A stretch of 61,567 bases of DNA, the filler included. It is 10 parts of 10 records of this genome, joined end to end, with 100 filler letters (N's around TTAATTAATTAA, not from the genome) between each part and the next. Parts side by side here need not be neighbours in the genome. Positions count along the whole stretch, not along the records: positions 1 to 13,316 come from SRR7504441_510; 9 more parts are not named here. One strand, 5' to 3'. A model generated the notes under the pieces. It ran no database searches, was not told the DNA's origin, and saw nothing but the letters and a program-made list of their open reading frames with translations. Position numbers and translations under genes: made by a program. Positions 1,861 through 42,316 of the stretch are shown piece after piece; positions within the stretch are counted from its first letter, which is position 1, and every line of letters starts with the position of its first letter.

Positions 1861-4048
1861 TCAGGCATTCCGGCAGATCGCACAGCCGAGGCAGAATTCT
1901 GTCCCGGCCTTGGGATGCTCCACCTTGAGCGGACACACGTGAGCACCTTGACAGATCGGAAAGTCCGAAAGCTTCTTCTTTGTCATTGCTGCGGGCGTAC
2001 CTTGCTTTTTATGGCACTCGTCGCAAAAGTGCGTGTTGCCCCAGCAAAACCAGGAGGCTATCGTGCAGCAGAACTTGCACTTCCATTCTATAAACTCTGA
2101 GCCGTGGATAGGGCAGACCGACCCCGAACCGGCCATCGAGCACCGACTGCACACCAGCTCAGCTGGGTCAAACTGCCGCTCCTCCTCTACCGCCTCACAC
2201 GCCCGCTGGCCGCCAAAGTACGGCTCGGTGCACTTGTGGCACTTGTAGTACGCAAACTTCTTGAGCGCAAACTGGAGCCTATCCCCGTTGAAGTGGCTCT
2301 CGATTTGCGGATGGTCGCCGAGCTTTTCGAGTTCCAACCGCTGGACCGCCTTCTGGCTCACCAGCTTGTACAGCTTCATCCCTTCCACCATCACCGGCTC
2401 AAGGCTCGGATGCTGGATCAGCTTCTTGCAGAGCGGACAGCTCATGTGTCCAAAGGTAATCCTGGCCCCTGTGTACCCTTTCTGAATCTGGCCGCGCAGG
2501 CAGTCTGCGTGAAATATGTGTCCACACGCCAGCTTGATGCACGGCTCACTGCCTAGGTCTGCCACCCAGCATATGTTGCAAAAGTCGTCCCGGGAGTGCT
2601 CCTCCGATGAGTTGCAGCCCGGATGAAGGCACGGGAGGCACTCACGCTCGCCGACCACGCCGCCGCACAGATGGCCACACGGGAGCACCTTGAGGCAGCC
2701 CTGAGAGGCGCATTTCCTGCACTCAGACGAGTCGCACACATTTTCAATTATATGCTGGGCACGCTGGAGCATGTCGCGCTTACTCATTGCCCACTGCTCG
2801 GTCTGGAGCTCTAATTTGGAGAGCAGCGCCTTGGTCTGTTGCAGGTTCTGCTTGCCTGATGGTATCTGCGCCTTGTTCACCCAGACACCCTGGCAATAAA
2901 AGCACTTCTTTGCCGCGGTCCACTGTTCAAACCCCTCACAGCTGAACCCAATGTGATACGGCACCCGCCCACATTTGGAGCAAAACACCGTATCGCACTT
3001 GCGGCAACGGAACCGGTACCGAGCTGCGTGCTGCTGCGCCTCTTTGCTGACCAGCTGACCATCCAACCCGCGGGCAGTCGCTTGGGTGCTGCCAGTCGGG
3101 TCCGGCGACCCGATCACCAGCTCCACCACATTATGGCAGTGCGGGCACTCGATCAGGTCTGCCGCGCCCTGGATGGCCTGGGTGAGCGTGAGCGTCGCGT
3201 ATTTCTCAAACAACTCGCCCTCCACGCTCTGTCTAATCTCCGTCTGGCCTAACTGGTACGAGCACCCACCCACGGCCGGACAGCCCGGCGCCGGCCCCTC
3301 CGGGGCACTCACGAACCGCTCCACCGCCCCGGCCACGCAGACCCTGCATAGTCTGTGCTCGCACCCGGGGATCGTGAGCACTGAGGCTAAGTCTGGCATC
3401 ATCTGCTCACAGCAGCTGCACTTGAGCTCAGCCGCCCGGAGCGCCTCGAAGGCCGACTGCTCCTCGCTCGCCCGGGCCTGCTGAGCCTCCAGCGCGAACT
3501 CCTCCATCAGCTGCCGGGCGAGTTCCTCGTCCCGGGCCATGAGCGTCGCCGGCGACTGCGGGAGCTCCAGCCCTTGCTCGTGGGCCTGCCGGAGCTGCTG
3601 CACGTGCCGCTGCTGCTCCTCAAATACCCGGACCATCGCGTGCAGCTCGGCCAACTCCAGCTGATCTACCCTATCCAGCAGCCCAGCCATAGTGGCGTCC
3701 GTCCGCTCAATCCACCCCGCGCTCGGCAGTGGATCCTGTCCCCGCAGTCAGCCGACGGGAGGAGCGGGGCAGGGGGGGGGGCTGTGGGGTGCCGATGCAG
3801 CAGTCCACGTGCCGGATCAGCTCGTCCATCCCAATCAGGTTGATCCCGCATATTGGGCACCGGTGCACTTCCAGTGTGTCCCGCGGGTCGATGCACTGGT
3901 CGGGCGACGGCGGGCCAAGCTCCATCGGGGAGCCCGGCGTGCTGCTGGCCATCCTCGCCCCCGCGCACCTCCCACCAACTCCCCGGTCCGAGCTCTGTGG
4001 GAGCGGCGCACGCCGGTACAAGGCAACCAGCCGGGTCCGCGCCTCCAT
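1861..4048 (-). CDS. E3 ubiquitin ligase: (UBZ)-RING1-IBR fused to a MYCBP2/Highwire-type RING-Cys-relay C-terminus
   Basis: ORF 1861-3690 has RING1 (CSCC..CEHRLCRVC..CPAVGGC), IBR (CPHC..CRKCDTVFCSKC..YHIGFSC), then CGHLCGG..CLPCL, CNICW..CGHIFHADC..RITFGHMSCPLC, YYKCHKC..YFGGQRAC, KCKFCC..WFCWGNTHFCDECH and CPLKVEHP..EFCLGCAICRNA. Upstream ORF 3707-4048 has UBZ-like CPIC..IRHVDCC; its splice junction to the main ORF is unresolved. Confidence 0.9.
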
Positions 4049-4110: not shown

Positions 4111-5391
4111 ATGGCGGAGTTGGTCGCAGCGCGGGAGCGCGCGGTGCTGGATCGGGCGGCGGCGGACGCCAAGGTGAGCTCCCGCCGCCCCGGTCCGACT
4201 GGGCGGGCAGGCCGCGCTGGCCGCGACAACGCCGTCGAGCACAATCTCGGTGCGGCCGGGGGCCCCTCACCAGGCGCTGAGGGCCGGGCAGCTGCAGCGG
4301 TCGGCCGTGATGACTGAAGCGGCCACCCTGGCCGAGATGCGACAAGTGCGCGGCATGGGGGCAGTGCATTGATTGGGGCGCACAGGAAATGAACGCTACC
4401 TGGGCTGGGGCGCTCTCATCCACAATGAAGACAGCAAGCCAGGGAGGCAGCCGACGCCGCGGCCGGAGCTAAGCGGCTGCAGGAAACGAGTCGGCCACCC
4501 GGGTCTCGGCCATGCTGGGCGAATCGGTAAGTCTGCCAGGCCTGGAGCAGGCGGCCGACCGGTCCCAGGCCCGGCCGCTGCCTACTGCTCCTACTCCGCT
4601 CTCTGACGCCATCCGCGACCGCGAAAGAGTGGAACGGGTGGGCTGCTGTGGCTGCACTGCTTGACCTGCTGACCTACACAGGCGAGGGAAGACGCGGCTA
4701 GGATCATGGCGGTAGCATCGCCACCGGGACTGATTGGCAGCCCGTCGGCTGGCGTGAGTCCGACGGCCCTGACACCGCCGCGTACCAAGAAGAGCTACAG
4801 ATTCGGACACTTGAAGCAGAGACTGAACGAGATGTGCTCCAAGAGACCAATGACCACTTGCAGGCCGCCCTCGACGCCGCTGGGGTGAGCGACGGGCAGC
4901 GGGACTTGGCGATCCAAATCAAAGAGCTTGAGGCTCAAATCAAGCGCACAGAGCAGTTGCATACTGCAGAGGTGGCGCAGCTCCACGAAGCTTGGGCAGC
5001 TGAAATGACGCGAGCGGATGATGCCGACAAAGGCTGCTCAGCTTTAAATGAAGCAAGCCAGACAGCATTATGCGAAGCAAAGAACCAACTGCCACCGAGT
5101 TCATCAGCTGAATTGCAAGCCATCTTGATAGAAGACCGCGCCAGCTCTCTGGGGCGCATGTTGGAGATGATTCAAGCCGTTAACTTGGCTCAGAAGATGC
5201 TATCGGAGGAGAAGAGGCTAGCACACGATCAGGTGAAGGAACTGACCACCAAGCTTGAAGCTGAACGAAAGCGACACGTTAAACAGCTGAAGCTTTTGGT
5301 AAAAGGCAAGGGGGACGAACGATTAGAGGCAATCGTCGAGTCATTGCAGCAAGAGCTCGAGGAGCTACAAAAAGAGAGAGCATTTGACTAA
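4111..5391 (+). CDS. Coiled-coil protein of unknown function, multi-exon
   Basis: ATG 4111 is followed by ~40-nt GT-AG introns; the last exon (ORF 4834-5391) is E/K/L/Q-rich and heptad-like. Middle exons are not fully resolved. Confidence 0.6.
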
Positions 5392-7078: not shown

Positions 7079-10000
7079 TCAAGCAAGGCTCACCGGATTG
7101 CTCCCTGCCATGGTATGCCTGCGAGAAGCACCCGGTAGACCATGGAATTCAGGCACACCTGCCAGCAGAGCTTCACATTCGAGCAAACACACGCGAGCTA
7201 CCTGCTAGCGCTCGAACATGCGATAAGATAGAGCCCTCCAGGCCAGAAGAGGAGGCGGCTGGATAGCCTGCACCCAGCAGTGAGTCTTACGCCACGGCAA
7301 GCAGGCACCTCCTTCTAGCACAGATACGACCCGGCCTTCGCAGAACCGGTCCGCCACTGCACACAATTCGCATGTAGCCCACTCAAAGTCCTGCCCGCAC
7401 ACAGGTTAGTGGTTGGGTTGCCATGTAGGTAGGCCGACCGCCTCGGTAAGCAGTGTGCCGCCCAGCTTGTCGCCTGCAGAGCTTAGTCAGGTCAGCTGCA
7501 GCTTCTTGCGCACCTCGGTGGGCGTCGAAACCTGCCGAGATAAACAGCATCTGTGGCTGGAATAGCTCAAGTGCTGGGAGCAACTGGCGTGAGAAGACAC
7601 TCCTGAGGTCAACCACAGATTATTCTCAAGACACTAAAAGAGTCACCGGAATGCCGAGCCATCAAATCCCTTTGATAGCGGGATGTTGTGAAGGTTCATT
7701 GAAGGATGAAGCGGAGCCGCGCCTGCATTGGCCGGGAAGAACCCCTGCCCATGACGATGCACCGAGGCGAAGAAGGTGTTCAGGTCCCCGGCCACGATCT
7801 CCTCGGTGCCGTTACCATGGTGCACATCGAAGTCGACCACAGCCAGCCGTGTCAACCAGGGCGCCTGAAGTCGGGCGTGCACCATGCCTATAGCTACATT
7901 ATTCAAAAGGCAGAACCCCTGCGACGCCTCCCCCAACGCCAGCCCGTCCCGTCCGGCGTGATGGCCAGGGGGTCGCACACAACAGAACGCGTTCCGGGCT
8001 TCTCCTGCAATCACCATCGAAACCGCCTGGCACACGGCGCCGCTTCCGTGCAGTGCTGCATTGTATGAGTCGGCAGATACCACAGTGTCCAAGTCGCCGG
8101 ACTCAGGATTCAATGGGAGCAAACATCCCTGGGCCCCAGCCGCGGCGCATAGGCTCTGCAGCTGCGACAGATACAGAGCTGTGTGGACACACCGAATAGA
8201 GATCGGGCTGATGGCTTTGGCTTCGCTCTGCAAAACTATGACCTCATCTGGCATCTCGGAGCCGATGGTCTCATTGATCAGCTGCATTGCCTTGGACTGG
8301 CGCGCGGGCTGCTCCATATGCTGACTGGGTACCCTGTGCCCTAGGCACTGGCTGCTGTACACAACCGCAGTGTATGTTGAGCCCACTGGGCGCGGCGGTG
8401 GGGTGAGTTGATGCAGGCTGCGAGTGCACAGTAGCGTCAGCCGCTCTAAATTCTGTCCAATCGCCGTCTGTAGCGGCACTGGCTTGCAGAGCCAACGGAT
8501 GAGTTTGATCTTCTCCAGTGCTCGCGCCGCTGCATAGTCGTCAGCCAGTGCCATGGCTCCTTCGCGGAACATCTGGGCCGAAATCTGTCGGAGCCAGATT
8601 GCAGACATTTCGGCGACCTGCAAGAGCAGCTGTAGTGCGCTACGGGCCTGCAGTTCTTGAATGAACTGCTTTTGGACATCGATCTGATGAGAGATCTGAT
8701 CCAAGTTCTGCTGGGCCGCAACTCTGGCACCCTCGAGACGCTGCAGGTGATCCACAGCGAAATGTAGCTCATTAGCAGACAAGCTGTTTACTTGAAGCTG
8801 CTGAGTGCTGAGTTGCATTAAGGGCGTCTCCATGCCCTCCGGCTTGGGCGTGAAATCAGTTGGGTCCGACTGTCTGGGCCTAAACTCCGACTGCACCAGG
8901 CGCTTCCTTTTGGCAACGTCCGCGTCCAGGTTGCGGCACGCCCGCTGCAGCTCCCACGCCAGAAGAGATATGTCTAAGGTGGCATCAAGCAGCCCATCCT
9001 GTGCCACCTCGCCCCCGGCACAGTGCCATTTGCCCCAGTTCTCAGCGGCGTGGTCGAGCCTCACATCCGGTATTGGGAAGGGCAGGCTGAACCGAGGCTC
9101 GTGTGAGAGCGCGTGCAGCAACTCCGGGCTTGGTTGGTCCCTTGTCGGGTCCGGCAGCCGCTTGCACAGCAGCTTGCATATGGTGAGCAGTGCGTTGACC
9201 TGCTGCTCTTTATCTACTGGCGCCTGCTGCTGCACCACAGGCTCCGGCTGGATTTCTGGTTCAAACTCTTCTAAGGGAATCAGACGGGGCCGTTTGGCTG
9301 CTACCACATCCGCATCTTCACCAGGCCGTTTGACTCTGGACTTGTAGGAGGAAGCCAGGTGGCATTGGCAGTCTGGCTTATGGTTGTAACGGCCACACCC
9401 AGAGCCTGGGGGGCCTCTGGCTACCTTGGGTTTGGGCTCACCCCTTTCGTGGGAAGGCGGCACCTTGCGCATCAGAGGTCTCTGCTTAACCACCGATGAT
9501 TTGCTGATCTTGGGGTTGATGTGACATTGGCAGTCGGGCTTGTGCTGGAATCGGCCACAGCTCGCAGCTGTGCCTTTCCATTTGATGGACGCCTTCAATG
9601 CAGCTGCTCGTGAGCTCGAGTCGGCTTGAGCTGTGACTTGCGTGGTTCCATTGTCCTTCTTGACAGGCGGTGGCGGGGCCAGCAGCTGCTTTTTGGCTTG
9701 CTTGCCCCGAGGCTGCTGCTTGGGGATCGTAACGAGAGTCGAGATCGCCTTTGGCAGTTCGGTTGGCACGCGGCAGCCTGGCCCGTTTGACAGAACAGCC
9801 TTGATTTGTTGAAGGATAACGCTGGGCTGGGTCTCCTCTGAGGAGAGCGCGCAGCTGATCACCGACATGAGCTCGCAGCACGACCACAACGTCTCCAGGC
9901 GCAGCACCGAGTGCCGAAGCATCTGCGACAGACAGAAATCAGTCAGGTGGTCAGTTGGCAGCTGGGCGCAGGTACCTGTCGCATGACTCCAAAGGCGGTC

Positions 10001-11792
10001 TGGGCGATGGCAGTCCTTGGCACCTGGTCGGAGGGCTGCATCAGGTCCCGCCATGGTTTGCTCGCCAGTTGAGCGTCGATATCAAGCGAGCTGTCTTCCT
10101 GAGATCCGTCTGCAGCGCTCGTATGCTGCATGTACCAGCTGCAGCACTGGTCAGGCGTGGCTAAGTAGCTCAGCTTCGGGAAGGTCTCAGTGGCCAGCTT
10201 GGCGGCCTCAGTCGCCATCGCGTAGTGGCACCGGACCGCTCCATTCCGAGTGGCCTGACTCTCCCTCGCAGTAAAAGCGAGGTGCGCTGACAGCCCTTCT
10301 GCGATGGCAATGTCCACCAAGTGGCAAGCAGAGAGTTGCTTCTCCTGCTCGCCGAGGAGAACATCAGTCATCTGCTGAGGCTTGACTCGAAGCGACCCAA
10401 AGTACTGCGCACTGTCCCGCAGCTTGGTCACCATCCTGTCGAAATGACTCGCGTTTCCGCCAGGTGCGCTGAACTCACAAAACGGCTGGGTCTGTTCGCC
10501 AGTGATCTGTATCGAGCCCAGATTGGCGCACAGCTGGACCATCACTTCCTGGTCAGCGTGTGGCTTGTCCCGATCTCCGAAATCGTAAGGTGAAAGCACG
10601 ATTGCTGGCCACCAGAGCGGCGGCTTGCCGGGCTTACATTCCCACTCGGCCCACACCACGCTCTGCTCCATCAACACATCATTGGCCGTGGCCTCGGTCA
10701 CGTGCAACGCCTCCCGCTGGCCGTCATCGTAGCTGAGCGTGATCCTGTGGTTCGCAGTGGCTCTCAAGATGCAGCCCTGATACCACGCGTTGTCTTGTGA
10801 CCAGAACACCCTCACCCTCACGGTGCCCCACGCCGTGCATCGGAGGCACCGGTCGCAGACCCCGATCTTGAAGTGGCGCGCGCCAGTGCCTTGCCCCTGG
10901 AGCGAAAAAGTCGCACAGAGGCAGCTGTCCTCGAGCTTTTGCTGGTAGGTGCCATCAGCGACCGACTGGATCGCCAGCTCTCTCGCGGCGTCGACCGGGT
11001 TGCTGAACATGTTGCCCTGCCCACCGACCTGGCTCCAGCGCTGCCCGCCCCCGGCCCCTCCCGCGTGCCGTTGAATGTACATGAAACCAGAGGCCGACGT
11101 GGCCTGGCACCGAAGGTCAGCACCGAGCCGAGTGTTAATCAGCCACAGACTTAGCCCCGCTAGTTAATCAGCAGTGGCCGTCAGGCGGGGCGCTGCTTAC
11201 TGCGCGCAGCAGCCTCCAGTCGTCGATGCTGTCTTCGGTGCCGCCATCGTCCGCCTGCTGTCCTCCTCAGCAAGCAAGCCAACACGTGCACGAGACCGGC
11301 GCGTCATCCTGTTGCTGATCCAGCCAGTCCGAGCACAGGTCGTACATCGCCTGGTAGTTCCTGCGCACCGCCAGCTCGCCCGCTCCCCAACGGGCAACCG
11401 ACCATTCGTCCTCCGCGCTGTCCTGTTTGAGCTCTCCCGATATAAATTTGGTCAAGGCGAACGAAGGGCAGCCTGCACCAGGCTCAGAACATGGCCGTGG
11501 CCAGACCCGACGCGGCGGAGCGAATCCAACGGGGTGCACCCCCCGGACTGGTTGGATCCAGGTCCGGGCCAGCCTAATTGCGTCGGCGGTCGGCACGCCA
11601 GGGGCCAGCCGGCACGACTATGGGCTCGGGACTGGCCGTGGCCCAGGCGGCCGGCCGTAGGGGGGGCTGGGCCGACGGCTTGGGTTTGAGACGGGCAGGG
11701 CTTGGGTTGGCGCCCGGGGGCGGGTGGGGCGGTCCAGGCGAGCCCGGGGCACGTCCCCACGGGGCCTGGGCGGCTCTTCCGCTTGCAAACAT
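7079..11792 (-). CDS. Class II-type histone deacetylase with N-terminal Tudor-like and PWWP-like domains
   Basis: Deacetylase motifs RPPGHHA, GFCLLNNVAIG, VDFDVHHGNGT, ISAGFDAH and (after splicing) SVLEGGY. Tudor-like VRVFWSQDNAWYQG..LSYDDG and PWWP-like VVWAEW..LWWPAIV lie in ORF 9943-11082, joined by a 53-nt GT-AG intron. Start and extreme 3' end are uncertain. Confidence 0.85.
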
Positions 11793-28717: not shown

Positions 28718-31700
28718 ATGGCAGCCTGGCTGGGGGGCGCGGTGGTGATGGGTTTCCTGGCCGTGGCGGCTGGTGGGCCGGTGCCGGATAGCGATCAGTA
28801 CATCATTAGCTCCACAAAGGAGCTCAGCTACTCCAGCCTGTCCCTGGTGCCTGGTCTTGCCTCGGGCCCTCCCTGAGCCATCACGCGGCAGGAAATCAAG
28901 GGCAAGGGCATGCAGTGCGGGAGCCCTATGCTGGGCGACTGCCTCAAGGCCGTGTTTGATCCCCCGCTGGCTCAGGCGGCCGCCGGGCGGGAGCTGCTGC
29001 CAGCCGGGGCCAGGGCCCTGACTACAGCTTGGGCCAAGGGCTGTTGGCCCCATCGCCAACGGGGTTCACTCTGGTGCTCAATATCGCCAACGGGGCCCAG
29101 TGCGCCGCCCGCCACCCCGCGGTCGAGCCCGGGCAGGTGGCGCGAATCCCCGGGGCCGCTCTACCTGACCGCGCTGGCCGACGACTACCCGGTGGTCCCT
29201 CCTGTGCAAGTGGCCACCATCGTCCCCGACCCCGAGGCCGCCTGGCCGCCCGCTCCCGGCCGAGCCGGCTCCAGGTGATCGCGGTGAGCAGCGTCCCGCC
29301 GTACAGCCGCACACTCGAGCTCAAGATCGGCCCGACGGGGCTGACAAGCCAGACAATCAGCCAGCGAACTGGGGACTGGCTCAGGCTGGTGCCTCCGGTG
29401 CCGATCCGGGCCGGGCGGGCTGAGGGCGGGGCAGCCGGAGTGCGCGTACCAGGTGTCGGTGGGCTCGAGCGACTCGGTGCTGGTGCTCAGCCGGACCGAC
29501 GACCAGCCGTGGAGCAGCACAGGCGAGAGCACAAGCATCATGATCGAGCAGATAGACACCGGCACCGGGCTGGTGAGACTCGAGCCGGGCGCACTGAGCC
29601 TCGGGCCAGGTTAACTTCGCCCAGGACACGCTGATAGCGGTGATCGAGCCGCCCGGTCGGATCACTGTGCTGGCGGCGCCAGGGCTGGCGGTGCCGAGGA
29701 ACCAGCCACGGATCACAATCGGCGGCACCGGGTTCGGGACGAGCTCGGCCGAGATCAGGTTCAGCTTCAACCTGCCGCTGGTGCTCGGAGAGGACTACAA
29801 CGTGCTATCGATATCTGAGCTGCAGACCGAGGCCACGCTCGAGCTCCGGCCGGGCAAGACCTGGGGCAAGGCGGCCAGGGTGCCGCTGCAGGTGACGTCG
29901 GTCCAAGTCGGTCCGAGCGCAAAGCCAGCCAGCGTGCTGTTCAGCCCTGCTCTGACTGTTGGGTTCATCATCGAGGCCAATGCGAGCGTTGGGCTCAGTG
30001 TGTTCAGCAGCCCAGCCGTGCCCCTTCTGGCAGCAAATGCCGACACTCTGCAGGTGCACGGCAACGGATTCGGGGACGACGAGACAACGCTGACAGTGCA
30101 ACTTGGGCCGGATCTGGTGCTTGGTGAGGACTTCAGAGTGGATTCAGTTAGCGAACAGATGCTGGTGCTCCGTCGAGTCACAGGCAAGACGTGGGGCCCT
30201 GCAGCCACCACAATCCGACTCGCCCAAGTGGACGGTTGCCCTGTTGGCTGTCCGGCCCCGATCGGGATCAAGCTTGCCTCGGTGCTGCCTGCGGTGACGG
30301 TCACTGCCAGCGAGAGCAGCCGATCGCGCTTCAACCCGGAGCTGCTGATCTACGGCTCCGGATTCGGGCCAGACCCGACCCAAACCAGCCTGCAGTTCAA
30401 GCCTGAGATGGCTGCCGGTAGTTACACCATCATGGCTGTCTCAGACACCCAAATCAAGTGTACCATTATGTCAGGCCAGCAGTGGCCTGAAGGCAAGCTC
30501 GAAGTGGTGGCGGTCAATCCGTCTGGTTACGGCACAGTGACCTTCGATGCACCGATCTCGGTGGCAACAAACGTCGACCCAACAAACGTCGACCCACAAC
30601 AAGATGCTGCTGGGATCACAGAGAGCTCACGAGAGCTCTCAGTTGATTCTGAGTGGCTTTCCATCACAGGATACGGGTTCGGCGAAAATCTGGCCGTTGT
30701 GAGCATTACATTCGAGCCCGACATCTCATCACAACTGTACTACATCCGGGTAGCTAGCCCGTATCTTCTCCAGCTTCAACGAAACTTCACGTCTGGAAAC
30801 GAACCTTGGCCGAACGGCGAGCTGGCCATTAAAACGATCGAGATAAATGGGATTATAACAGACTTTGACCCTGTAGTGAAGGTTGCAACACTGGTGAGCA
30901 AGAAGCTTGAAATAGCTGGCTCCACTTACAAGGTAGCGGCCGATGTACCCGTTCTCAATCTCCAAGGAGCTAACATATGTCCTGATGGCCTCAGTCTCAA
31001 ATTTTCACCGCCACTTTATGAAGGCTCCGACTACACATTCGGCCGCATCACGAATGAATCAGTCGAGCTGCATTTGGTAGATGGCCACTTCTGGATCGAA
31101 GAGCAAAAAACGGCGCCGCCGGGAGGTATTGATCCATACAAGCGGCCGATGCTGCCTCTCGCAGTTACCCGAATCAGTTGCAAAGAGGCGCTTGGAGTGT
31201 CCAGCCTGTCTACAACGGTGTTTGATATCTCGGCTGGCGGGACAATTGGTATTGTGCCGAATCCTACCAATGCGGTCTACACAAATGAGGCAACGCTCAC
31301 CATATTTGGTGCGAGGTCTGTATTGTGTGCTTGGACTTGCTTGAGGCTGACTGTGCGATTGGCAGTTTTGGGAATGCTCCTGAATCGGTCAACATCAAGC
31401 TTTCAACTGTGGCTCCATATGTAGTTAGCGCATGCACTCCCACGAAGCTGGAGCTGACTTTGGTTCATTCCTCCGACACTTGGCACGGGCCAAATGGCAA
31501 CCGGACAGTCTATGTCACCGACTTGAGCGTGGACGAAGTTGGCACCGTCAACTCTCAACACCCGATTATTGCTACGCTTTCTGACCCGCCTGTTGTCCGC
31601 GAATCCCACAAGACTTTGGCGATGCATGCTAGATCCTTGGTGATAGAAGGTATTGCAACATCTAGCCTCTCGTGTGCAACGTGGGTTGAGAAATTGTGTT

Positions 31701-34700
31701 GTAGGTGAAGGCTTTGATGCTGATCTCGCGCTCAAATTCAAACCTGAGTTAATCTTGGGCTTCGATTACGAAGTGGCATCACTGAACAGCACATACATTG
31801 AGCTATCGCTCATCAATCAACGGGCGTGGCGCAGTGATGGCTACGCCGGTGTTCTGATAGTCTCTCAGATCGAACAGGGCTCATTTGCAAGAGTTGAGCG
31901 CACAGTCGCTCGGATTGTTCCTAGTCCACAAATCATTACATCAACAACACGACTTGTATCGACGGGGCCTGTGCTTCAGATCCATGGACTAGGACTGGGT
32001 TCTGATGTTCGCGATGTCAGGCTGGCGTTCTCGCCTCCTTTGAATGCTGGTGACTACACGATTTCGGCCCTAGATGCTGGGAACGACGCAGCTGGGGTGT
32101 TTTCCATTATGACATTGGAGCTTGCTGCTGGCAAGGAGTGGCGTTCGGACCCTGGTCCTCTCATATTGACAGAAGTCGAGATCGGAGCTCTTGGAACTGT
32201 TTCAATGAGTACTCAGATCGTCGCAGTTGTAGGATCTTCAGAGTTTTATGTCAATGAGAACTTTGCCGAGGTCAATCCAAATGCAGCGACAATTACAATC
32301 ACAGGCTCTGGCTTGGCGGCGGGATCAGAGGGGTCACTTCGACTTCAGTTTGATGCAGAAGAACCTGCTTGGGGTCTTGGGGACACCTATACTATTCTTG
32401 CGCGAAATGATACTTATATCACCCTTCAGCTGCAGGCCGAACAGAAGTGGTATGCCCCCACAGGAGCCGGGAATCCTGCTGATTGGTCAATGGTCGTACG
32501 ACTGCAGAACATCTCATTCGACTCAGGTGAAACTATGATAGATGCAAGAAATGTGGCTATTGCAACGCTGAGAGCTCAGGTTGTCGAGGTCCAGGGCGCC
32601 GAAGCTGAGGTCCCAAGCACGTTTCCTTACCTGTTTGTGACAATCAAGCCACGTACATTCACTGCATGCTTAGATCCCGCACTAGTCGATTTGACTTTCG
32701 CAAATGGGAAGCGGGGGGGCGGCGAGGACCCGGATTACAAGATAATAGACATTTCTGACCCGCCAGGTCAAAGTGTGGGAGGCATCAAGGTCCTGACTCT
32801 CAGACTTCAACCTGACAAGAGCTGGGGTAACCCAACTGAGACGCTCGAAGTTACGGAGATTGCTTGCAAGGGTGCAGGCAGGGTGCCTGCAACTAAATCA
32901 GGCCGTATTGCAGTTGCCAAGATTGTTGGTCCCGAAGTGTGGTCATTGAGTGAATCAGCCACGATTGCTGAACGAAAGCGCACCATTGGAACCAATGGAG
33001 GCCAGCTCAGTGTAACTGCGAGGGAGCTGCACATTGTTGGGAGTGGATTCGGAACCAATCCCGCGGCTATTACTGCCATGGGCATCAAGATCGAGGATTA
33101 TCTGGCATTCGAAACCGATTATCAAGTCAAGGCCGTCGAAAATAATATACTCACGCTTGAGCTGTTATCTAGCGACAAGGCCTGGGATCCATCGTGGTGG
33201 GATTCATCCACTGGGCAACAGAAGTATCGCTCTGTACCTCTCCTGATAGACTCGGTCAAGATAAGTGGAACGGAACAGATGGGAACCGAGGTCAAGATTG
33301 CTGAACTGATGCAGGGTGTCATTGTGACTCCCAGTACGCTAAAAGTTAGTCTCACAGCTCCGATCATAACCCTTGTGGGTTACAACTTGGGTGCATTTGC
33401 AACTGGTAGCCTCAAGTTCGAATTCTCATCTGGTGCTCAACAAGGACAAGATTTTACCATTGCCGAATGTCATGGCTGCACCCAGTGCGACCCAGCGTTG
33501 GAATGCCCAGCGGGGACACTGGTACTGGCTCTGGTCAAAGGTCAGCAGTGGGCAACAGATGTCTCGTCCCACCTCGTCATCAATGGGACCAGTGGCCTGT
33601 ATGGGCTTAGTGCTCATCAGGTTTCAGTGGGTGACTTGGTATCGTCATCAACAGTGTATGCTACCCCAGCGGCGTCCAATCCTGTTTTCCAAAGTGCGGC
33701 TGACCTGATAATTGATGGAAACGGATTCGGGCACGACCTAGGGGAAGTGACCGTCAGTTTGGAAGGTCTGTCGGGCTATGTTGTGACTGCAGTGACTCAC
33801 AACCGGATCATAATCAGCCGTGGGTCCCTGTCAAGCTGGGGCACAGTGGGTGCTGTGTTGACTATCACGAAAATTACAATCTCTTCGACTGTCACCTCTA
33901 TGAACACACTGGTAGGTATTGTCACAACTGACCCTGTTGTGGCCCCATCAAGCACTCGCACGTTCATGGGATCATCCAGTCTCCAAATACAAATCAGCGG
34001 CCTCTGTAGCACCGATGCGACCTGCGCAGTTGTGGCCACCTCGCCTTCGATGGGGCTGTTCCTGGAATTCGACCCACCTCTTGTGCAAGGCGCTGATTAC
34101 TACATCTCAACTGTGAGCACCAGTCAAGTCACGCTAGGCCTCTTCAGACAAGCTAGGTGGTGGTCTGAGGTTGAGCTCGATCACGCAGTGGCTTCATTTG
34201 CACTTACAGTCAAGCGCGCTGGCTTGGTTACAAGCTCTGTTCAAAATAGCGTGCAAGTGGCAGTCCTCTCACACGATGGGCTGAAAGCGCAAGCATGCCT
34301 GAATCCTCTGGGCAAGTTTGCTTCGACGCTGGACATTCGAGGCAGCTTCGATCTCCCTCAGTGGGACGTCACTAAAGGCTCCTCCTCGGGTCTAACTCTT
34401 CAATTCGAGCCAGACCTCGTCGAGGGAGAAGACTACGAGCTCCAGGCGGTGCAATCAGATGTCATGCGGCTCGCTCTACTGTCCACAAAAGCGTGGAATA
34501 TGCAAAGCATGGAACCAGATACCACGCCTGGGTCATTCAAAGCGTTAACTCTTGTGTCGCTGACATCAAGCGAAGGTCAGCTCATGCAGAATCAACCGGT
34601 GGCCAGTGTGGTGTCTCCAAACACATTTTACATCCAGCCACGGGCCTTGTTCAAAGAGTACTTGAATGTACGCTCTTCGAATTCAATTGAGATCATAGGA

Positions 34701-37700
34701 AACGGGCTATGTGGCGAAGCCTATTCCTCGACATATGAATGCACCGGCTCCTTGGAGTTTGCATTTTCTTCTGGACTAGTTGAGAATACCGACTACAAAC
34801 TACAGGCTGGATTCAGCAACACTCGGGTGGTCTTGCTTCTACAAGACAGCTTTTGGTTGCCTTCTGGGGAGACCGGCTTCTTATTCCTTGATGCAGTAAA
34901 ACTCATAGGGTTAGCAGATATCAATGCCGGCTGGGCAACAACAAATGCCACAGTGGCATCGATAGTAGATGACCCCGTCTTCCAGGCGAGCAATGCCGGA
35001 CTGTTTTCCAAGGCAACGTCGCTCACAATCTCAGCCACAGGACTCACGACATCCTCCAAGCAGCTGTCCCCCCTTTTCGAAGAAATGTCTTCACTCGTTC
35101 TCACCTTTGATACTGACTCGAGCGTAGTGCTTGAGGTTGGTACGGACTACATCATCCAAACTCCAACAGAGAGCGGCGTCACCCTGTCTCTCGTGGCAGG
35201 CAGAAAATGGTCATTTCCACGCAAGACCCTCAAGCTGACCAGTATAAACCTGCACGGCATGGGGGTAATGACGCGCTTCGGTACACAGGCAGGTGCCCTG
35301 CCTGTCGCCTCGATTGTGGAAGACGCTACTGTGACAACATCCCGAGCCGAGCTTGCTTCAAATGCCGACCAGCTGGTTCTTAGGGGGAGAAACCTTGCGA
35401 ATTCGCTTCAGCTTACGTTTGTTCCCAGCTTGACAAAAGGTAAGGAATATGAGTATGATCGACAAGCAAGTACAGATTCAAAACTGGTACTCACGCTTCA
35501 GGCTGGCTACGAGTGGGTTAGTAGTCCCTACGGGAGCCTGGTCATCGCAGAAATCTCGAGCGATGCAGGGACTCTCCTGGCAACCACCACAGTAAGCAAT
35601 GTGGTCGAAGGGCCCAGCGTTGATGCCAATGACAACGATCTTGGTGCTGAGTTTCCTTATGTGTATATTTACGGTAGCGGCTTTGGATATAAGGCAGGTC
35701 AATTTCAAGTGACAAAACTAACTTTCGACCCAGTCCTTGTTCGTGATGTAGACTACAACATCACTGACCTTTTTGACAGCAGAATCACCCTGAGTCTCAA
35801 ACCTGGCAGGAAGTGGTTTGGCAATGACAACAATCAATTAGTTCTTGTTGACATGGAGATCGCCGGAACCGGTTCTACGGAGGCTAAACAGCTTGGGACC
35901 GGCACCGTCACGATAAATAAGCCGCTGGGAACACTTGTAGATCCTCTAAAGGTATACATCCTGGAGAACGATGTCCCTGTGTCTGCACTCGTAGCGAAAA
36001 TTATTGTGTACGGCAATGGCTTCAGGCCATCTGGAGCGGACCTCGCTGCTGCCACGTGTGAGGAGTATCTTGAGACTCCATTGCTTCAGACGTGACTTGC
36101 TAGCTCAGATTTGATGTCTGAGAATTGCTGTGCTGCAGGTCGCCTCCTCTCGAGCAGGGATCCAACGACCATCCAGGAGACTTCGTCCTCAACGTTCTGA
36201 GTAACAATGAAATGGAATTAATCCTGCAGCCAGGAAAGACCTGGAGGGAGGGAAGCGGTGAACTGCGCGCCGCATCTATACAGGTCTGCCAGGACGGAGG
36301 AACCTATCAAATAGATGCGACACTGGCGTATATCTCTACCCCTTGTATGGGCTCGGCCTGTACCTTGCTCCAGGATAGAGTGCCACACCGAGATTTTGTT
36401 GGAGCAGGCGAGACACAGATATATAACTACACCGTGTGCAGCCGGACCTCGTCCGTGCTCACCCTGACCGCCACTCCCCTGGCTGGATTCTTCACTGTCT
36501 ATGTATCCAGGCTGGGTCTACCAAATCCTAATACCGCAGACAACTCAATGAACTCAAATGAACTCAATGGGCAACCATTGGTGTTTGATATCTCTTTCCC
36601 GGAGAACATGCTTGGACAACAAATGTATATCGCTGTGGTAGGAAGCCAGGATGCCGATTCAGAGTACATCCTCACCATGGCATCACAAGAGTTTCAGCTT
36701 GTGCCTACATCGGAGCCGTTCGAGTTCACGCTTGGTCCCTCCAAAGCCGAGCCGCCTTGTTCAAGCACGTTTTTCTTCGATCTTGCAACCCCAGCAAATC
36801 TCCTGTATGTCAATACTGAGCTTGAGGTGTACCGTGTAAACGGTATCCCAATGGAAAGTACAACGCCATATCTGAACCTGGAGATGCCATCGAATAGCAC
36901 GCTACGAGGTCAGGGGAATCTTGAGACCTCTTCTGGTGAGGGGCCTCTGAGGTCTGGGCGATACAAGTTGGTGATCGATGCAGTCGACACGGTGAAGCTA
37001 AAGATTTTTGTCTCGCCTGTCCAAGTCGTGGAGTACAACACACAAACAGAATCATTTGTTTATTCGAGCGCATATCCTACAGTGCTCCGTATAGATCCTC
37101 CGTGTGGCTTCAGCGGCACCCTCAACATCACCTTTGACATCTCGGTAGCAGCATCAGAGGATGAGGCTGGTGTTGATTTCTACCTTTCACGCAGTCCGAA
37201 ATTGACAGACCTCATCATGCGTACTGAGGAAATGTGGGACCTGGGATTCTCGACACCTCCCACCGCATTAGAGCCCGGCCTCAATTTGGCAACAGCTGGA
37301 GTCGTGAACCGCACTGCCCGAATCGACTACTATGAACTTGGGAAAGGTCCAGAGTACTATATAATGGCAGGATTCCGCAGCACAGCTTCGCAGCCCACCT
37401 GCGATCGTGCATACCCTTTCTCCCTTAGAATTCATACGCATGATGCATTTTTATGTCATCTAGAGCCATTGGAGGGCCCCGATGAAGGTGGTACGCAAGT
37501 GTTGCTCGAAGGTCGCAACTTTGTGCATGGCCAAACCAGCTGCAGATTTGGACGCCGTGTCACAAAAAGGACATTTGCGCCCGGGCACAACGAAGTACTA
37601 AATCCGCTCTGGGGGACTGACGACGATGTGGAATTCGGCAGCGTAGAGGCGACCGTCTTGAACAGCACCCATGCCATCTGCATCTCGCCATACGCGTGCC

Positions 37701-39648
37701 TGAATGGTACTGCTAAGAACTATAACGCCGAGACCGGTGAATGCAGCGAGCCACCTCCGGCTGGGTGGAAACGCAACCTCGATGTGGCCATTTCGAATCA
37801 CCCAGGAGCAGCCCGTATGCCACTCACTGAGTTTGTTGACCGTACCTACTCGAATGTGCTCCCATTCCAGTACTTTTCGAATCCAGAGTTCGTAAGTGTG
37901 GTGCCCACTGCGGGTCCTATGTCCGGTGGGACTAGACTGCAACTTTTCATCAAGGGTGCATCTGAGAATGTACAGAACTTCAGCTCAATCGGATGCATCT
38001 TTGGTTCGCAATATGTTGAAGCAGCTCTCATCAATCTAGAAACAATTGTCTGCACTAGCCCACAAGTTGACCGGGAGACAATCGTGCCCCTGCGGCTTTC
38101 CATAAATGGTCAGATCGCAGCACAAGGCAGCGGCGGGCTTACCTTCTACTGGTTCGACGACAGCTTCCTGGGGACAATAACTTCCATTTTCCCCCAGGGT
38201 GTCGATGGCAGTGGTGGCACACTTATCACTGTTATTGGGCACAATTTTCGCCAGTACGAACCAAACTTGGTTCAATGCCTGTTCGGGACTAATCAGATCG
38301 TAGCCGAAGATGCTACTGAGAACGCGGTGGTCTGTCGGCTACCACCCATCGCTTTAAGCCAACTCTCGGCATCGGCACAACTTCCAGTACGCGTGCAGAT
38401 AAATGGCCAGGACCTATCGCGCACATCAGCCCATCTAACTGTGTATAATGCTGGTACCATCTCACAGTTTGATTATATCACTCCCACCTTCGGACCTATC
38501 ACAGGTGGTACAGCAGTGACTCTGGTAGGGTCTTCATTTCCCAATGTTGGGGGGATGCTCTGTCGACTCAGGTACAAGGACCAGTTGTGGGGAACAATAA
38601 ATGATACCGGGATCACCATGTCGGCATCTTACATTAGCAGCTCAAAGCTTGAATGCACAACCCCAGCAATGCCAGAGCTGAGCATCAGCAAGCGAGAATA
38701 CACAATTGGTCTCAGCCTAAATGGAGGGTACGATTGGTTTGTCGAGATGGTACCGGAGATGGAGGGTACCAAAGGTTTCCCGCTTCTCTCGCCAAACCTG
38801 ACATTCTTTTACAAACAAGACATAGCTATCACCGAGACCCCATTCCCAAACTCGGGTCCAATCGCCGGAGGCGTTTTGGTCCGTCCCCTTTATCCCTGCA
38901 TGCCTTATACTGAGTATGGCTTGCCACAGGTAACGATCACTGGCTCCGGATTCGGGGTGCCCGACAAAGCTGGCGTCTTGGGGCCTGGAGGGACTCCACT
39001 GTGTCGATTTGGTTCGTCAGTGGTTGAAGCGGTCTCCACTATCGAGGTCAACAAAACAGCCGGCAGTCCAAACGAGGTCGTTTCGGAGCGGATGACATGC
39101 AGATCGCCTGCTGGACAGGCTGGGAAAGTGTCACTAGAAGTTGCTGTGAACGCACAACACTTTTCAGCATCGGGCTATCAATTTGAGTATGCCAAGCCTG
39201 TGGGATACTCTCGCGCGATTATCAATGCCAGCGCGACATTTGACACACTGCGGCCGACTGATTTTGACACTCTCCTGATGGATGTGTTCCTAGAGTCCAT
39301 GTTGCGAGCAGTTCCAAGCCTGCCACGTGATGCTGTCAGCCCGTCGGCTGTCAGCCAGAGTACAGCTCAGAGTGTACCTACTGGTAACACCAAGCCAGAC
39401 CTCACACAGTATGACTATACTGCCAGTCAACGGCGCGTTCCCGAAGCAGCCGGGGCAACTGTCTGGTTCCAGATCAATTACTTCGGCATGCCATCCGACC
39501 AGGTAATAGAGATATTATATGCTGCTTTCAACGGCACTGATGGCTTCAGCTCCACATTCAAGCAGGAGGCCATTCGTCAAGGCAAACTCGGACTCATCGT
39601 GAATAGCCCGATCGATCTGGTCCAACTCGAGATCGCTTTGGTAGCTGG
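28718..39648 (+). CDS. Giant secreted/surface protein (>3,400 aa, 3'-truncated): many ~100-aa TIG-like repeats followed by five canonical IPT/TIG domains
   Basis: Signal peptide MAAWLGGAVVMGFLAVAAG; recurring IxGxG[FL]G..FxPxLxxGxDY..LxLxxGKxW; IPT motifs PLEGPDEGGT, PTAGPMSGGT, PQGVDGSGGT, PTFGPITGGT, PNSGPIAGG; consecutive ORFs joined by short introns. Confidence 0.85.
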
Positions 39649-39748
39649 NNNNNNNNNNNNNNNNNNNNNNNNNNNNNNNNNNNNNNNNNNNNTTAATTAA
39701 TTAANNNNNNNNNNNNNNNNNNNNNNNNNNNNNNNNNNNNNNNNNNNN
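39649..39748. other. Artificial contig-joining spacer
   Basis: N/TTAATTAATTAA/N, 100 nt. Confidence 0.98.
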
Positions 39749-40288
39749 GCGGTGCAGTGCGCGTACATTGAGTGCCACACGGAGCTGCGTGAGGGCGCTG
39801 TGCCACTTTCAGTGGACCTCTCCAGGCTGCAAGTGCACCGACCGCCGGAGCTTTGCGTGCGGCTGTGTGAACACAACTGGGTGGCGCTGTCGGCGCCAAT
39901 CCGGATGGCGGCGGCGGTGCCTTGTGGGGAAGTGGGAAGATTCCAGCAGCAGCTTCCGTGCCAGGTGCAGGGGGTGTTGCACTGCATAGTGGTGTGGTTC
40001 GTGGAGCTGTGGGGCGGCCGCAGCGTCGACTTTGGGCCGAGCTGCGAGGAGTCTCACGCCTGTCAGCTGGCCTTCATGCCGCCCAGCTTTGAGCGCATCC
40101 AGGCGGGCGATCAGCTGCTGTTGGAGTGTGCTACCGACGACGAGCTCGTCATTGCTTCGGTCCGGCGTGTGGAGGCCTCAGATCCGGCGGCGCAACTTCC
40201 AGTGCACCAGCAGGCGGAATGTTGTGCCGACCGCGGCACAGGTGACGGTACGACGGCTAAGCGCACCAAACGTGCCGAGGATTCATGA
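39749..40288 (+). CDS. C-terminal fragment of a protein arginine methyltransferase-like (PRMT7/9-type beta-barrel) protein
   Basis: GVLHCIVVWF..GPSCEESHACQLAF resembles the PRMT barrel/THW-loop region; 5'-truncated. Confidence 0.5.
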   Translation, partial: AVQCAYIECHTELREGAVPLSVDLSRLQVHRPPELCVRLCEHNWVALSAPIRMAAAVPCGEVGRFQQQLPCQVQGVLHCIVVWFVELWGGRSVDFGPSCEESHACQLAFMPPSFERIQAGDQLLLECATDDELVIASVRRVEASDPAAQLPVHQQAECCADRGTGDGTTAKRTKRAEDS

Positions 40289-40667
40289 CCTAGGCGCATG
40301 CTAGGCGCATGCACCACTATGATCGTAGCCGTACGTAATAAAAGTAAAAATACATGCCGCGCGCCAAGCGGTTGCGTCTATGTTTGGACTGGAGCCAACT
40401 GGGCTTTCCCTCCAGGTATATTATCGGAGTGTGAGCTTGCTCTCACACGGTATCTGGTTAGTGGCTTAGTGGGACTGGATACAACATAAAGCTACTCAAA
40501 TGATGGTTAGCTCTTCCACCCTCTTCCTCACAAGACGTAAATATCTCTAGATCGGTACAATTTGTTTTTTCATTTTTTCACACAGTGTATATGTTAATTT
40601 TTGCACAATCTCATACTCAAGCTAAAAAGAGCTCTTTTTTATTTACTTGCATGCAATGCATGGTTAA

Positions 40668-41846
40668 TTAAACAATTAGGAAACCCGCTGGGGCGTTATC
40701 ATCAGGACACCCCGTTGTCCACTTCAACTTCATACAATGGGCGTGCTTGGTGTGAGCATCCACGCCTGCCATAGGTGTAAAGCATTTGTTCCCATCCACG
40801 GGTTGTCCCTCTGCCGTGAAGCAGTTAAACATCCGTTTCAACGTGATATAGTTGCTGCCATCTGCGGTGCCGATGGCCTTTACAAAGGTTGAGATTTGAG
40901 TCTTGGTGCTGTGACGGTCAGGTCGGTAAGGTACCCAGCCAAACTTGACGTAGGCCGCCTCATGCTCCTTCGGATCGGTTTCCCAATCTTTGAACATACA
41001 TTCACCTTTTGGACCACAGGTTGTTCGTATAGGGGCGTGTTCGGGCATGTTCTGAATGCTCTGTATTGGAACATACCGAGAGATAGACTTTTGCTTCGCC
41101 ACCCGGGACACCATGGCCTTGCAAAGTCGTCTGGTAGACCCTGGCTGCATCGTACAACTTTCCCAGTCATTCTTGTCATAATAGCGACTCTCTTGGAAAG
41201 CGCAATCCCCCGCCAGGGAGCAATATTGATCCGTGAGTTTGGACGGTTTCTGGGGTGCCCGCCATGTGTGCGCATCTGTCTTCATAAAGGTATCCTCCCC
41301 GGCGGAAGCGCACTCCGCTGGGTTATGTGCTCGTCCCTCCTGCCTGCCATGGAGCTCCCAATGATTCTTGCATTTGGCAGCTACCTCCCCGGTCTGGCAG
41401 CACCTTCCTCCACAGAACGCCTGCATCAGGTCGTCGTGCTTGTTGCAGTAATTGTTATAGCAAGCGGCTGCAGAGCCACCGCTGGAATCGCATTTACCAA
41501 CAAGGCACTGCTCTGGATCAGGGCCTCTACCCTCTTTCTTACCTGATTGTTCCCAATGGAGTTTGCAGTGTGCAGCGGTCACTACGGTGTTGCACTCTGC
41601 CCCGCCACAAAAAGCGTTCTTAAGATCGGCGTGCCCGTTGCAGTACGTGTTGTAGCATCCCGCGCTGATCTCAGAGGGAGATGCGGTGGAGTAAGTCTGG
41701 TGAGAAGTGTGTTGAACGGCCCCTGCAGCCGCAGCGTTGGATACCAAGAAGGCGACAATGACGAACAGGGTGCGTGCCCCCCGAACGACCCCACTCTGTT
41801 GCATTGGCAGCATTGTGTCACGCCAAGGTGTGCCTTGGCGATCCAA
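40668..41846 (-). CDS. Secreted Cys-rich protein with two Y..H.DL..AF..HW..G..EGR repeats
   Basis: Hydrophobic leader TLFVIVAFLVSNAAAAGA; two ~50-aa repeats with 6 aligned Cys; intronless 392-aa ORF. Confidence 0.8.
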   Translation of the reverse strand: MDRQGTPWRDTMLPMQQSGVVRGARTLFVIVAFLVSNAAAAGAVQHTSHQTYSTASPSEISAGCYNTYCNGHADLKNAFCGGAECNTVVTAAHCKLHWEQSGKKEGRGPDPEQCLVGKCDSSGGSAAACYNNYCNKHDDLMQAFCGGRCCQTGEVAAKCKNHWELHGRQEGRAHNPAECASAGEDTFMKTDAHTWRAPQKPSKLTDQYCSLAGDCAFQESRYYDKNDWESCTMQPGSTRRLCKAMVSRVAKQKSISRYVPIQSIQNMPEHAPIRTTCGPKGECMFKDWETDPKEHEAAYVKFGWVPYRPDRHSTKTQISTFVKAIGTADGSNYITLKRMFNCFTAEGQPVDGNKCFTPMAGVDAHTKHAHCMKLKWTTGCPDDNAPAGFLIV

Positions 41847-41884
41847 TGCCTGATGAATGTGTCCGTTATTTTAAAGGCTGGATC

Positions 41885-42316
41885 ATGCTCGAGGTGGCCG
41901 AGCTGGACAGCTTGGACCCGCCCGCGCGGGAGGAGATCGTGCGGCAGGCGGCCGCGCTCGAGACGCACATTTTCGGCTCGGCGCACACCGAGTGCGGCTT
42001 CCGCCAGGCGCTGGCCCAGCCGCGGGCTCGGCTGGTGGTGGCGGTGCCGGGGTGCGCGGGGTACTGCCTGTACAGCTCCGGCAGCTTGGCCGGTCGGGTC
42101 GTCAAGCTGGCGGTGGCCGAGGAGCACAGGGGGGCGGGGCTGGGCGCCCGGCTGCTGGGGGCGGCGCTGGACGCGCTGCGGCGGCAGGGCAAGTCGTGCG
42201 TGACACTGGCGGTGGAGCAGGACAGGGCGGCGGCGGTGCGGCTGTATCGCCGGGCCGGGTTCACGGTAGACGCGGACGACGGCGACGAGTACAGGATGGT
42301 GCTGGAGTGGGGCTAG
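41885..42316 (+). CDS. GNAT N-acetyltransferase (RimI-like)
   Basis: KLAVAEEHRGAGLGARLL (acetyl-CoA motif A) and AAVRLYRRAGF. Confidence 0.9.
   Translation: MLEVAELDSLDPPAREEIVRQAAALETHIFGSAHTECGFRQALAQPRARLVVAVPGCAGYCLYSSGSLAGRVVKLAVAEEHRGAGLGARLLGAALDALRRQGKSCVTLAVEQDRAAAVRLYRRAGFTVDADDGDEYRMVLEWG

Follow-up and report, generated by a model that had tools for sequence, protein, structure and literature searches.

Can the RING1 and IBR domains of an RBR ubiquitin ligase be joined, in one protein, to the RING-Cys-relay (RCR) unit known from MYCBP2? The question is raised by a gene at positions 1861 to 4048 of a 61,567-nucleotide stretch of DNA (hereafter the window; parts of 10 records of one genome joined end to end, filler included), whose source is a marine protist. 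The original prediction, made from the nucleotide sequence, was a hybrid E3 ligase in which an RBR-type RING1-IBR pair without RING2/Rcat is followed by a complete MYCBP2-like C-terminus. This hybrid architecture was supported by sequence, profile and predicted structure and is close to certain, but it is not unique to this organism, being shared by a large database family. How the two RINGs share the work, and whether esters are formed, is what we infer from the sequence comparisons, and both matters are discussed as such below.

The frame that carries the ligase is the following:

1864..3690, minus strand: main coding frame, 609 amino acids from the ATG at 3690, with the stop TGA at 1861-1863

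The frame is open from stop to stop between 3747 and 1861 (628 codons), and in the alignment to the closest relative (P0002) similarity continues in the same frame for approximately 10 codons 5' of the ATG at 3690. The single uninterrupted frame of 609 amino acids is present as claimed, and the E-values place the observation far past chance.

The C-terminal half is a MYCBP2-type relay block

The C-terminal part of the protein comprises these elements:

2605..2907, minus strand: Cys-rich zinc module (residues 262-362), with a CxxC pair, a variable helical insert and nine conserved Cys/His
2413..2589, minus strand: RING-H2 of the RCR unit (residues 368-426), ligands C371, C374, C389, H391, H394, C397, C418 and C421
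2251..2412, minus strand: linker helices from the RING to the tandem-cysteine domain (residues 427-480)
1864..2250, minus strand: tandem-cysteine (TC) domain (residues 481-609)
2197..2199, minus strand: codon of C498, upstream relay cysteine, equivalent to MYCBP2 C4520 in the phmmer alignment
2044..2046, minus strand: codon of C549, downstream relay cysteine, equivalent to MYCBP2 C4572 in the phmmer alignment
2158..2160 and 2011..2013, minus strand: codons of E511 and H560, respectively, the partners of C549

Comparison with solved structures by phmmer revealed that residues 364-609 correspond to the human MYCBP2 RCR fragment (5o6c_A, E 1.1e-61; 6t7f_A, E 3.2e-61), with approximately 40% identity over the RCR part, and the MYCBP2 match improved to 1e-102 when a family profile of 22 members was used. 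A full-length AlphaFold2 model (mean predicted local distance difference test score, pLDDT, 82.7; predicted template modelling score, pTM, 0.62) gave the same answer, since the MYCBP2 RCR structures ranked first in Foldseek (E 5.4e-22, target TM 0.72-0.74) and VIA aligned model residues 368-608 with residues 4387-4636 of 6t7f_A (Z 17.2, 234 residues aligned, root-mean-square deviation, rmsd, 3.9), with a Z of 16.5 for 5o6c. The agreement of phmmer, Foldseek and VIA bears out the proposed MYCBP2-like C-terminus, complete and with Cys at both relay positions.

The positions of the relay cysteines were examined by alignment, MYCBP2 numbering being fixed by the 263-residue 5O6C chain and the residue numbers in the VIA alignment. 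C498 falls on chain position 143 of 5o6c_A (C4520) and C549 on position 195 (C4572), and the predicted correspondence of both cysteines therefore held. H560 and E511 align with chain positions 206 and 157, presumably H4583 and E4534, so that the window protein shares with MYCBP2 both relay cysteines and the second-site Glu and His. Two neighbouring positions differ: W550 stands in place of MYCBP2 F4573 and Q563 in place of F4586, two phenylalanines that we assume to line the threonine pocket and to fix the threonine preference, and the substrate chemistry may differ for this reason. For MYCBP2 itself, PMC9527308 describes the relay together with a second-site triad of Cys, His and Glu, and PMC12664034 gives the C4520S variant as catalytically inactive.

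Further sequence analyses revealed that the block common to the MYCBP2-like giants exceeds the crystallised RCR, as it begins at residue 262 and includes the zinc module. The alignment of the family profile with a giant of 3951 amino acids (P0175) starts at the CxxC of residue 263 and extends to the C-terminal end (hhalign E 5.8e-81), and that of a MYCBP2 fragment from an insect (P0034, 'RCR-type E3 ubiquitin transferase' in its source) starts at residue 315. No IBR remnant was found in these giants, the hhalign alignment to the 3951-residue protein beginning only at the CxxC and Pfam detecting an IBR neither there nor in the insect fragment. The Cys/His residues of the module (C263 and C266, followed by C319, C324, C332, C338, H340, C342, C351, C354 and C359) are invariant or near-invariant in the alignment of 150 sequences described below. 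When modelled separately, residues 262-362 reached a mean pLDDT of 85.5, and no fold match was found among solved structures (best Foldseek E 3.3; best VIA-wide Z 3.6). The module was also considered as a hidden Rcat and this candidate was set aside; fold searches with a model of residues 255-368 gave no Rcat match, a missing match that by itself proves nothing.

Taken together, residues 262-609 resemble MYCBP2/PAM/Highwire/RPM-1 (the PHR proteins) in having the zinc module, the RING-H2, the linker helices and the tandem-cysteine domain, and the protein has the fold of the RCR class, both relay cysteines and their His and Glu partners. It differs in size (609 amino acids compared to more than 4000 in MYCBP2) and in lacking the RCC1-like, PHR, filamin or other giant domains, in place of which there are RING1-IBR and an upstream UBZ-like finger. 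Pfam reported only IBR and RING models on the 628-residue frame, as compared to RCC1-like, PHR, SPRY, ZZ and RING in the 3951-residue protein, in accordance with the predicted absence of RCC1, PHR and filamin domains. Because the giant's domains are absent, the window protein is not a PHR/MYCBP2 orthologue.

Within Pfam, the RING-H2 of the RCR unit scored just below the cutoff (26.9 bits against 27.3) and the final 180 residues had no match. None of the four proteins scanned (the window protein, P0002, P0015 and the insect MYCBP2 fragment) had a Pfam-A match in the tandem-cysteine domain, and Pfam-based surveys would consequently file such proteins as incomplete RBRs or plain RINGs.

The N-terminal half carries an RBR-type RING1 and IBR

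The remaining part of the protein is organised as follows:

3430..3690, minus strand: N-terminal helical region (residues 1-87), with long helices 13-38 and 47-89, the least conserved part
3253..3429, minus strand: RBR-type RING1 (residues 88-146), ligands C91, C94, C110, H112, C115, C118, C137 and C143
3157..3252, minus strand: RING1-IBR connecting helices (residues 147-178)
2926..3156, minus strand: IBR domain (residues 179-255), ligands C182, C185, C229, C232, C237, C240, H246 and C251

All eight RING1 ligands are present in the window protein, the last pair with the 'CP...C' spacing typical of RBR ligases, and each is kept in 20-21 of the 22 aligned sequences (the window protein with 21 of the 37 relatives obtained by a word-index search, the other 16, partial or weaker, being left out). 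The IBR was recognised by Pfam over one stretch only (PF01485, 28.9 bits against a cutoff of 24.3), and its first and second ligand pairs are separated by a 43-residue insert that is conserved in the family. The 22-member profile matched HOIL-1 (1.5e-10), ARIH2 (1.7e-9), HOIP (4e-4) and RNF144A (2e-3), and these RBR matches all stop where the IBR ends (profile position 215-222). In structure comparison of the full-length model by VIA, RNF216 (Z 11.3), ARIH2 (9.9), HOIL-1 (9.6) and parkin (approximately 8) aligned with model residues 88 to 249-261 only, the RNF216 and HOIL-1 structures being bound to E2-Ub, and the HOIP RING1 (7v8g_C) aligned over 78 residues with Z 9.3 and rmsd 2.0. Many RBR ligases were also retrieved by Foldseek from E 4e-6 onwards, ranked after both MYCBP2 RCR structures.

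No Rcat/RING2 was found after the IBR by Pfam, by the RBR profile alignments or by the structure alignments, which stop at about residue 261, and residues 262-609 are accounted for by MYCBP2-like homology. The ligands, the Pfam IBR and the end of the alignments at this point are consistent with the prediction of RING1 and IBR without RING2/Rcat: by sequence and by modelled fold, both domains are of RBR type and nothing Rcat-like follows them. The likeness to RBR ligases (HOIL-1/RBCK1 and ARIH2 being closest by profile, with RNF216, HOIP and parkin) thus comprises the RING1 with its 'CP...C', the connecting helix and a complete IBR. RBR ligases have in addition the catalytic cysteine of Rcat/RING2, whereas the window protein enters the MYCBP2-type block 11 residues past the last IBR ligand, and without an Rcat it does not qualify as a complete RBR ligase. 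Ester formation is also known for HOIL-1 (PMC9016349, PMC9527308).

The hybrid belongs to a large family of uncharacterised proteins

The protein collection searched has no entry identical to the window protein. The word-index search gave 37 relatives, the best of them 57% identical, including open reading frames from transcriptomes with the same collinear order of domains, and a repeat of it that used the alignment retrieved no others. The sole named genome member is the hypothetical protein PROFUN_05691 of Planoprotostelium fungivorum (P0015), which is 34% identical over 91% of the query and has the same full architecture, including an N-terminal C2HC finger. An exhaustive profile search of 1.84 billion cluster representatives returned 7739 matches at E<=1e-3, 2751 at E<=1e-10 and 992 at E<=1e-30, and a metagenome scan gave 19 related loci, all 29-45% identical and none of them close. 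The taxonomic leads are the one named amoebozoan and an Atlas cluster in which the few members with a label are ciliates.

Conservation was assessed in an alignment of 150 sequences, which consists of the window protein and 149 of the 150 listed profile matches, the giant of 3951 amino acids being left out. The full pattern, with at least seven of the eight ligands in each of RING1, IBR and RCR RING together with both relay cysteines, is present in 101 of the 150, and the IBR with both relay cysteines in 135, the remainder being mostly fragments. The position of C498 is Cys in 149 sequences and that of C549 in 139, with 10 gaps; His is found at the position of H560 in 134, and an acidic residue (Glu or Asp) at position 511 in 127. 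The ligands of the RCR RING are kept in 146-150 and those of the IBR in 147-149 of the 150 sequences, and within the RCR RING I373 is kept in 135 and P419 in 128. The mean frequency of the top residue was highest in the RCR RING (0.59), followed by the TC domain (0.56), the zinc module (0.51), the IBR (0.45) and RING1 (0.34). At the position equivalent to F4573, Trp (103) and Phe (23) prevail, and at that equivalent to F4586, Gln (57), Ala (23) and Pro (13).

The majority of members, though not every one, retain the RING1 ligands. A strict C3HC3 pattern failed in 33 of the 126 sequences that have at least 110 residues ahead of the IBR; inspection by eye revealed other spacings in some of them, only two CxxC pairs in about nine, and no Cys pattern in three (P0030, P0098 and P0169), while all 33 keep the IBR and the RCR RING. 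Other protist, transcriptome and metagenome members carry N- or C-terminal accessories, some with C2, SAP, PH or ubiquitin-like domains N-terminally instead, and SUN/discoidin domains also occur. In a Pfam scan of six long members, P0127 and P0146 had a ubiquitin-like domain at the N-terminus and C2 (and PH) domains after it; in these proteins the IBR and the relay block come after a degenerate RING1.

The family consists of unnamed or automatically named entries and is uncharacterised, and its design is new to the literature searched; among the papers listed by full-text searches, none describes an RCR protein outside animals or an IBR-RCR fusion, with the limit that the primary RCR papers could hold an earlier mention.

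A UBZ-like finger lies upstream in another frame

Upstream of the main frame, the following elements were located:

3797..3859, minus strand: UBZ-like C2HC finger (CPxC...HxxxC), within an upstream open reading frame with ATG at 3952 and stop at 3707-3709
3710..3780, minus strand: junction of the UBZ frame and the main frame, containing a run of 10 C

A UBZ-like finger just upstream of the ligase had been part of the original prediction, and the finger is indeed present at 3797-3859; its frame, however, differs from that of the main open reading frame, a point that had gone unremarked. Its spacing agrees with CPxC-x(9-14)-H-x(2-4)-C, which we take to be that of UBZ4 (Rad18-type) fingers. Pfam scores were below threshold (E 0.24 for the window finger; zf-C2HC_2 at E 0.022 for P0015). 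P0002, the closest relative, aligns without a break over 627 positions at 56% identity and bears a matching finger at its N-terminus, to which the window finger peptide aligns at E 4e-6, and by a simple pattern a UBZ-like finger precedes RING1 in 19 of 149 family representatives. Because homologues have it N-terminally, sequence comparison indicates that the finger is, in evolutionary terms, part of the ligase gene.

How the finger would be joined to the ligase in this genome is a separate matter, as fusion of the two frames requires the removal of 3n+1 bases. No GT-AG intron that fuses the finger frame to the main frame was found in the junction, and the GC-AG candidates, of 22-61 nt, are speculative. 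A DNA contig from another run (X1), which represents a second strain, spans 3589-3769 with seven mismatches and no gap. The C run at 3771-3781, which on the minus strand encodes prolines after the finger, is six bases shorter in X1, an in-frame length polymorphism; the gapless alignment and the six-base difference imply that the relation between the frames is the same in the second strain. Four of the five substitutions listed for X1 are synonymous in the main frame, two of these four lying upstream of the ATG, and the remaining substitution is silent in the finger frame. The possibility that one base of the C run is in error was rejected, since the TGA of the main frame at 3748-3750 lies downstream of the run and the second strain has no indel across 3589-3769. 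The junction may involve an unconventional short intron or a translational frameshift, or the finger may have become uncoupled in this lineage.

Proposed mechanism and alternative readings

On balance, the sequence, the structural model and the analogy with MYCBP2 point to an active transthiolating E3 of the RCR class with an RBR-derived targeting or regulatory arm, in which the RCR RING docks the E2, and we consider this reading somewhat probable. According to it, the RCR RING (368-426) would bind the charged E2, ubiquitin would move as a thioester to C498 in the mobile loop and be relayed from there to C549, and H560 and E511 would aid its discharge onto a substrate nucleophile, probably Ser/Thr or another hydroxyl, as in MYCBP2. 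The UBZ-like finger and the RING1-IBR arm would bind ubiquitin, free or in chains, and together they would bring the enzyme to material that already carries ubiquitin or stimulate it allosterically, the latter being a role of RING1-IBR in several RBR ligases. The RING1-IBR regions of RBR ligases have allosteric ubiquitin sites, and ubiquitin-related accessories recur in the family, as the UBZ-like motif (19/149) and as the ubiquitin-like domains of P0127 and P0146.

The positions of I373 and P419 usually contact the E2 in RING domains. The RCR RING is favoured as the constant E2 dock because the catalytic half is the most constrained in sequence, both of these residues are kept, and RING1 is degenerate in some members. 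The original prediction had left two options, two E2-docking RINGs that feed one relay site or a RING1-IBR arm with a regulatory or ubiquitin-binding role, and conservation across the family favours the second. Ester formation is likely, since the triad is kept; it is not assured, since the second pocket position is non-aromatic.

Several observations weigh against this reading. The finger is out of frame in the window and so may lie outside the protein, and its capability of binding ubiquitin may be questioned, as the assignment depends on the spacing that we take to be that of UBZ4. With Gln at the F4586 position and Trp at that of F4573, the selectivity for threonine, or even for hydroxyls, may differ. 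RING1 is complete in the window protein, and the first-loop position is hydrophobic in 76 of the 110 family members without a gap there, which is compatible with E2 binding by RING1. In addition, the indication of transcription is weak, short contigs from poly-A libraries that span 1835-2160 being a hint of it.

The point on RING1 leads to the alternative that survives best, a relay with two inputs, in which RING1-IBR docks a Cys-reactive E2~Ub of UBE2L3 type and directly loads C498, the TC domain replaces Rcat, and the RCR RING is a parallel dock. In its favour, the window RING1 has all eight ligands and its fold aligns with the E2-Ub complexes of RNF216 and HOIL-1 with the Z scores given above; besides the hydrophobic first loop, the 'CP' of the last ligand pair is kept in 95 of 111 sequences. 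The IBR is close to invariant in its ligands, and in RBR ligases this domain helps to hold the donor ubiquitin, and Rcat was lost exactly at the start of the MYCBP2 block. Such a relay would nevertheless depend on what is the least conserved zinc module of the protein, with a mean top-residue frequency of 0.34 compared to 0.59 for the RCR RING, on a domain that is degenerate or missing in some full-length members that are otherwise complete, and, in the window protein itself, on a first-loop residue that is Cys and not a large hydrophobic one. We regard this arrangement as possible but unlikely.

A further alternative is that the RING1-IBR arm has lost every role in the ubiquitin system and is only a zinc scaffold that binds a substrate or partner, or that keeps the enzyme inhibited, with the RCR block working as in MYCBP2. 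The low conservation of RING1 outside its ligands would suit such a scaffold, as would the variety of N-terminal accessories (C2, PH, SAP, ubiquitin-like, SUN/discoidin), which suggests that the N-terminal half is the targeting part. The IBR, however, is nearly as conserved as the catalytic parts (0.45) and has in addition the conserved insert, a constraint that exceeds what a passive scaffold needs and counts against a scaffold-only role, which we consider improbable.

An RBR/RCR chimeric assembly or a pseudogene is most improbable: the finger is out of frame and unrepaired by any GT-AG intron, no read or contig bridges the IBR/RCR boundary (the short contigs miss 2813-3412) and the best match to the protein is no closer than 57%, but the 609-codon frame is open, the P0002 relative aligns along its length unbroken, the second-strain substitutions are largely synonymous and without indels, and chimerism is excluded, by homologues and not by reads, because the same collinear order is found in the 101 sequences with the full pattern, which come from independent assemblies and transcriptomes.

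Evolutionary reading and significance

The term 'grafted' in the original prediction presupposes a direction of evolution, which is hypothetical. One tentative scenario, which we hold to be rather unlikely as a whole, is that the RCR class is an old offshoot of the RBR ligases that predates animals, in which the zinc module, the RING and the tandem-cysteine domain replaced the Rcat of an ancestral RING1-IBR-Rcat ligase; the protists would keep the ancestral two-input state, with RING1-IBR still loading a Cys-reactive E2~Ub onto the relay loop, and animal MYCBP2 would be derived, through loss of RING1-IBR and acquisition of the giant N-terminus. A review gives the range over which MYCBP2 is conserved as C. 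elegans to mammals (PMC9120709).

In the literature searched, the MYCBP2-type relay has so far been studied only in the giant animal MYCBP2, whereas the complete unit is here found to be widespread in protists, in proteins of approximately 600-800 amino acids in which an IBR nearly always, and an RBR-type RING1 usually, precedes it. This pushes the origin of the RCR class well outside animals and suggests an evolutionary, and possibly mechanistic, link between RBR and RCR ligases. These compact and tractable proteins could be used for studying the relay, ester-forming ubiquitination, and control by a second RING and ubiquitin-binding elements. The significance is tempered by the fact that the family is visible to any database searcher and that the mechanism is proposed from sequence.

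Genomic setting of the ligase gene

The window is eukaryotic nuclear DNA of approximately 50-69% G+C, and its other genes encode a histone deacetylase, a RabGAP-TBC/EF-hand protein, a Ras-family GTPase, TIG-domain proteins, an HMG-box protein, a sulfatase and an FAD oxidase. An Rfam scan of the whole window gave zero matches. Read mapping gave small shares in marine and aquatic runs, and the short contigs from these runs have gaps at 2330-2650 and 2813-3412 and do not extend beyond 3769.

A frame of 229 codons (4702-5391, plus strand) lies upstream of the ligase gene in divergent orientation; it encodes a sequence of coiled-coil type with abundant Glu, Leu, Lys and Gln and had no Pfam match at 1e-5. 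The block from 30000 to 42000 has approximately 51% G+C, compared to approximately 55-69% in the remaining window, and contains a frame at 31647-36095 (1482 amino acids) without a Pfam match at 1e-5 and another at 36122-39700 (1192 amino acids) with an IPT/TIG domain; an additional TIG-domain frame lies at 29598-31424. At 7643-10081 on the minus strand, a frame of 812 codons has a long N-terminal portion without a Pfam match, and its histone deacetylase domain occupies only the final 220 residues and runs past the end of the frame. This domain probably continues in another exon, the region 9943-11163 being open on the same strand.

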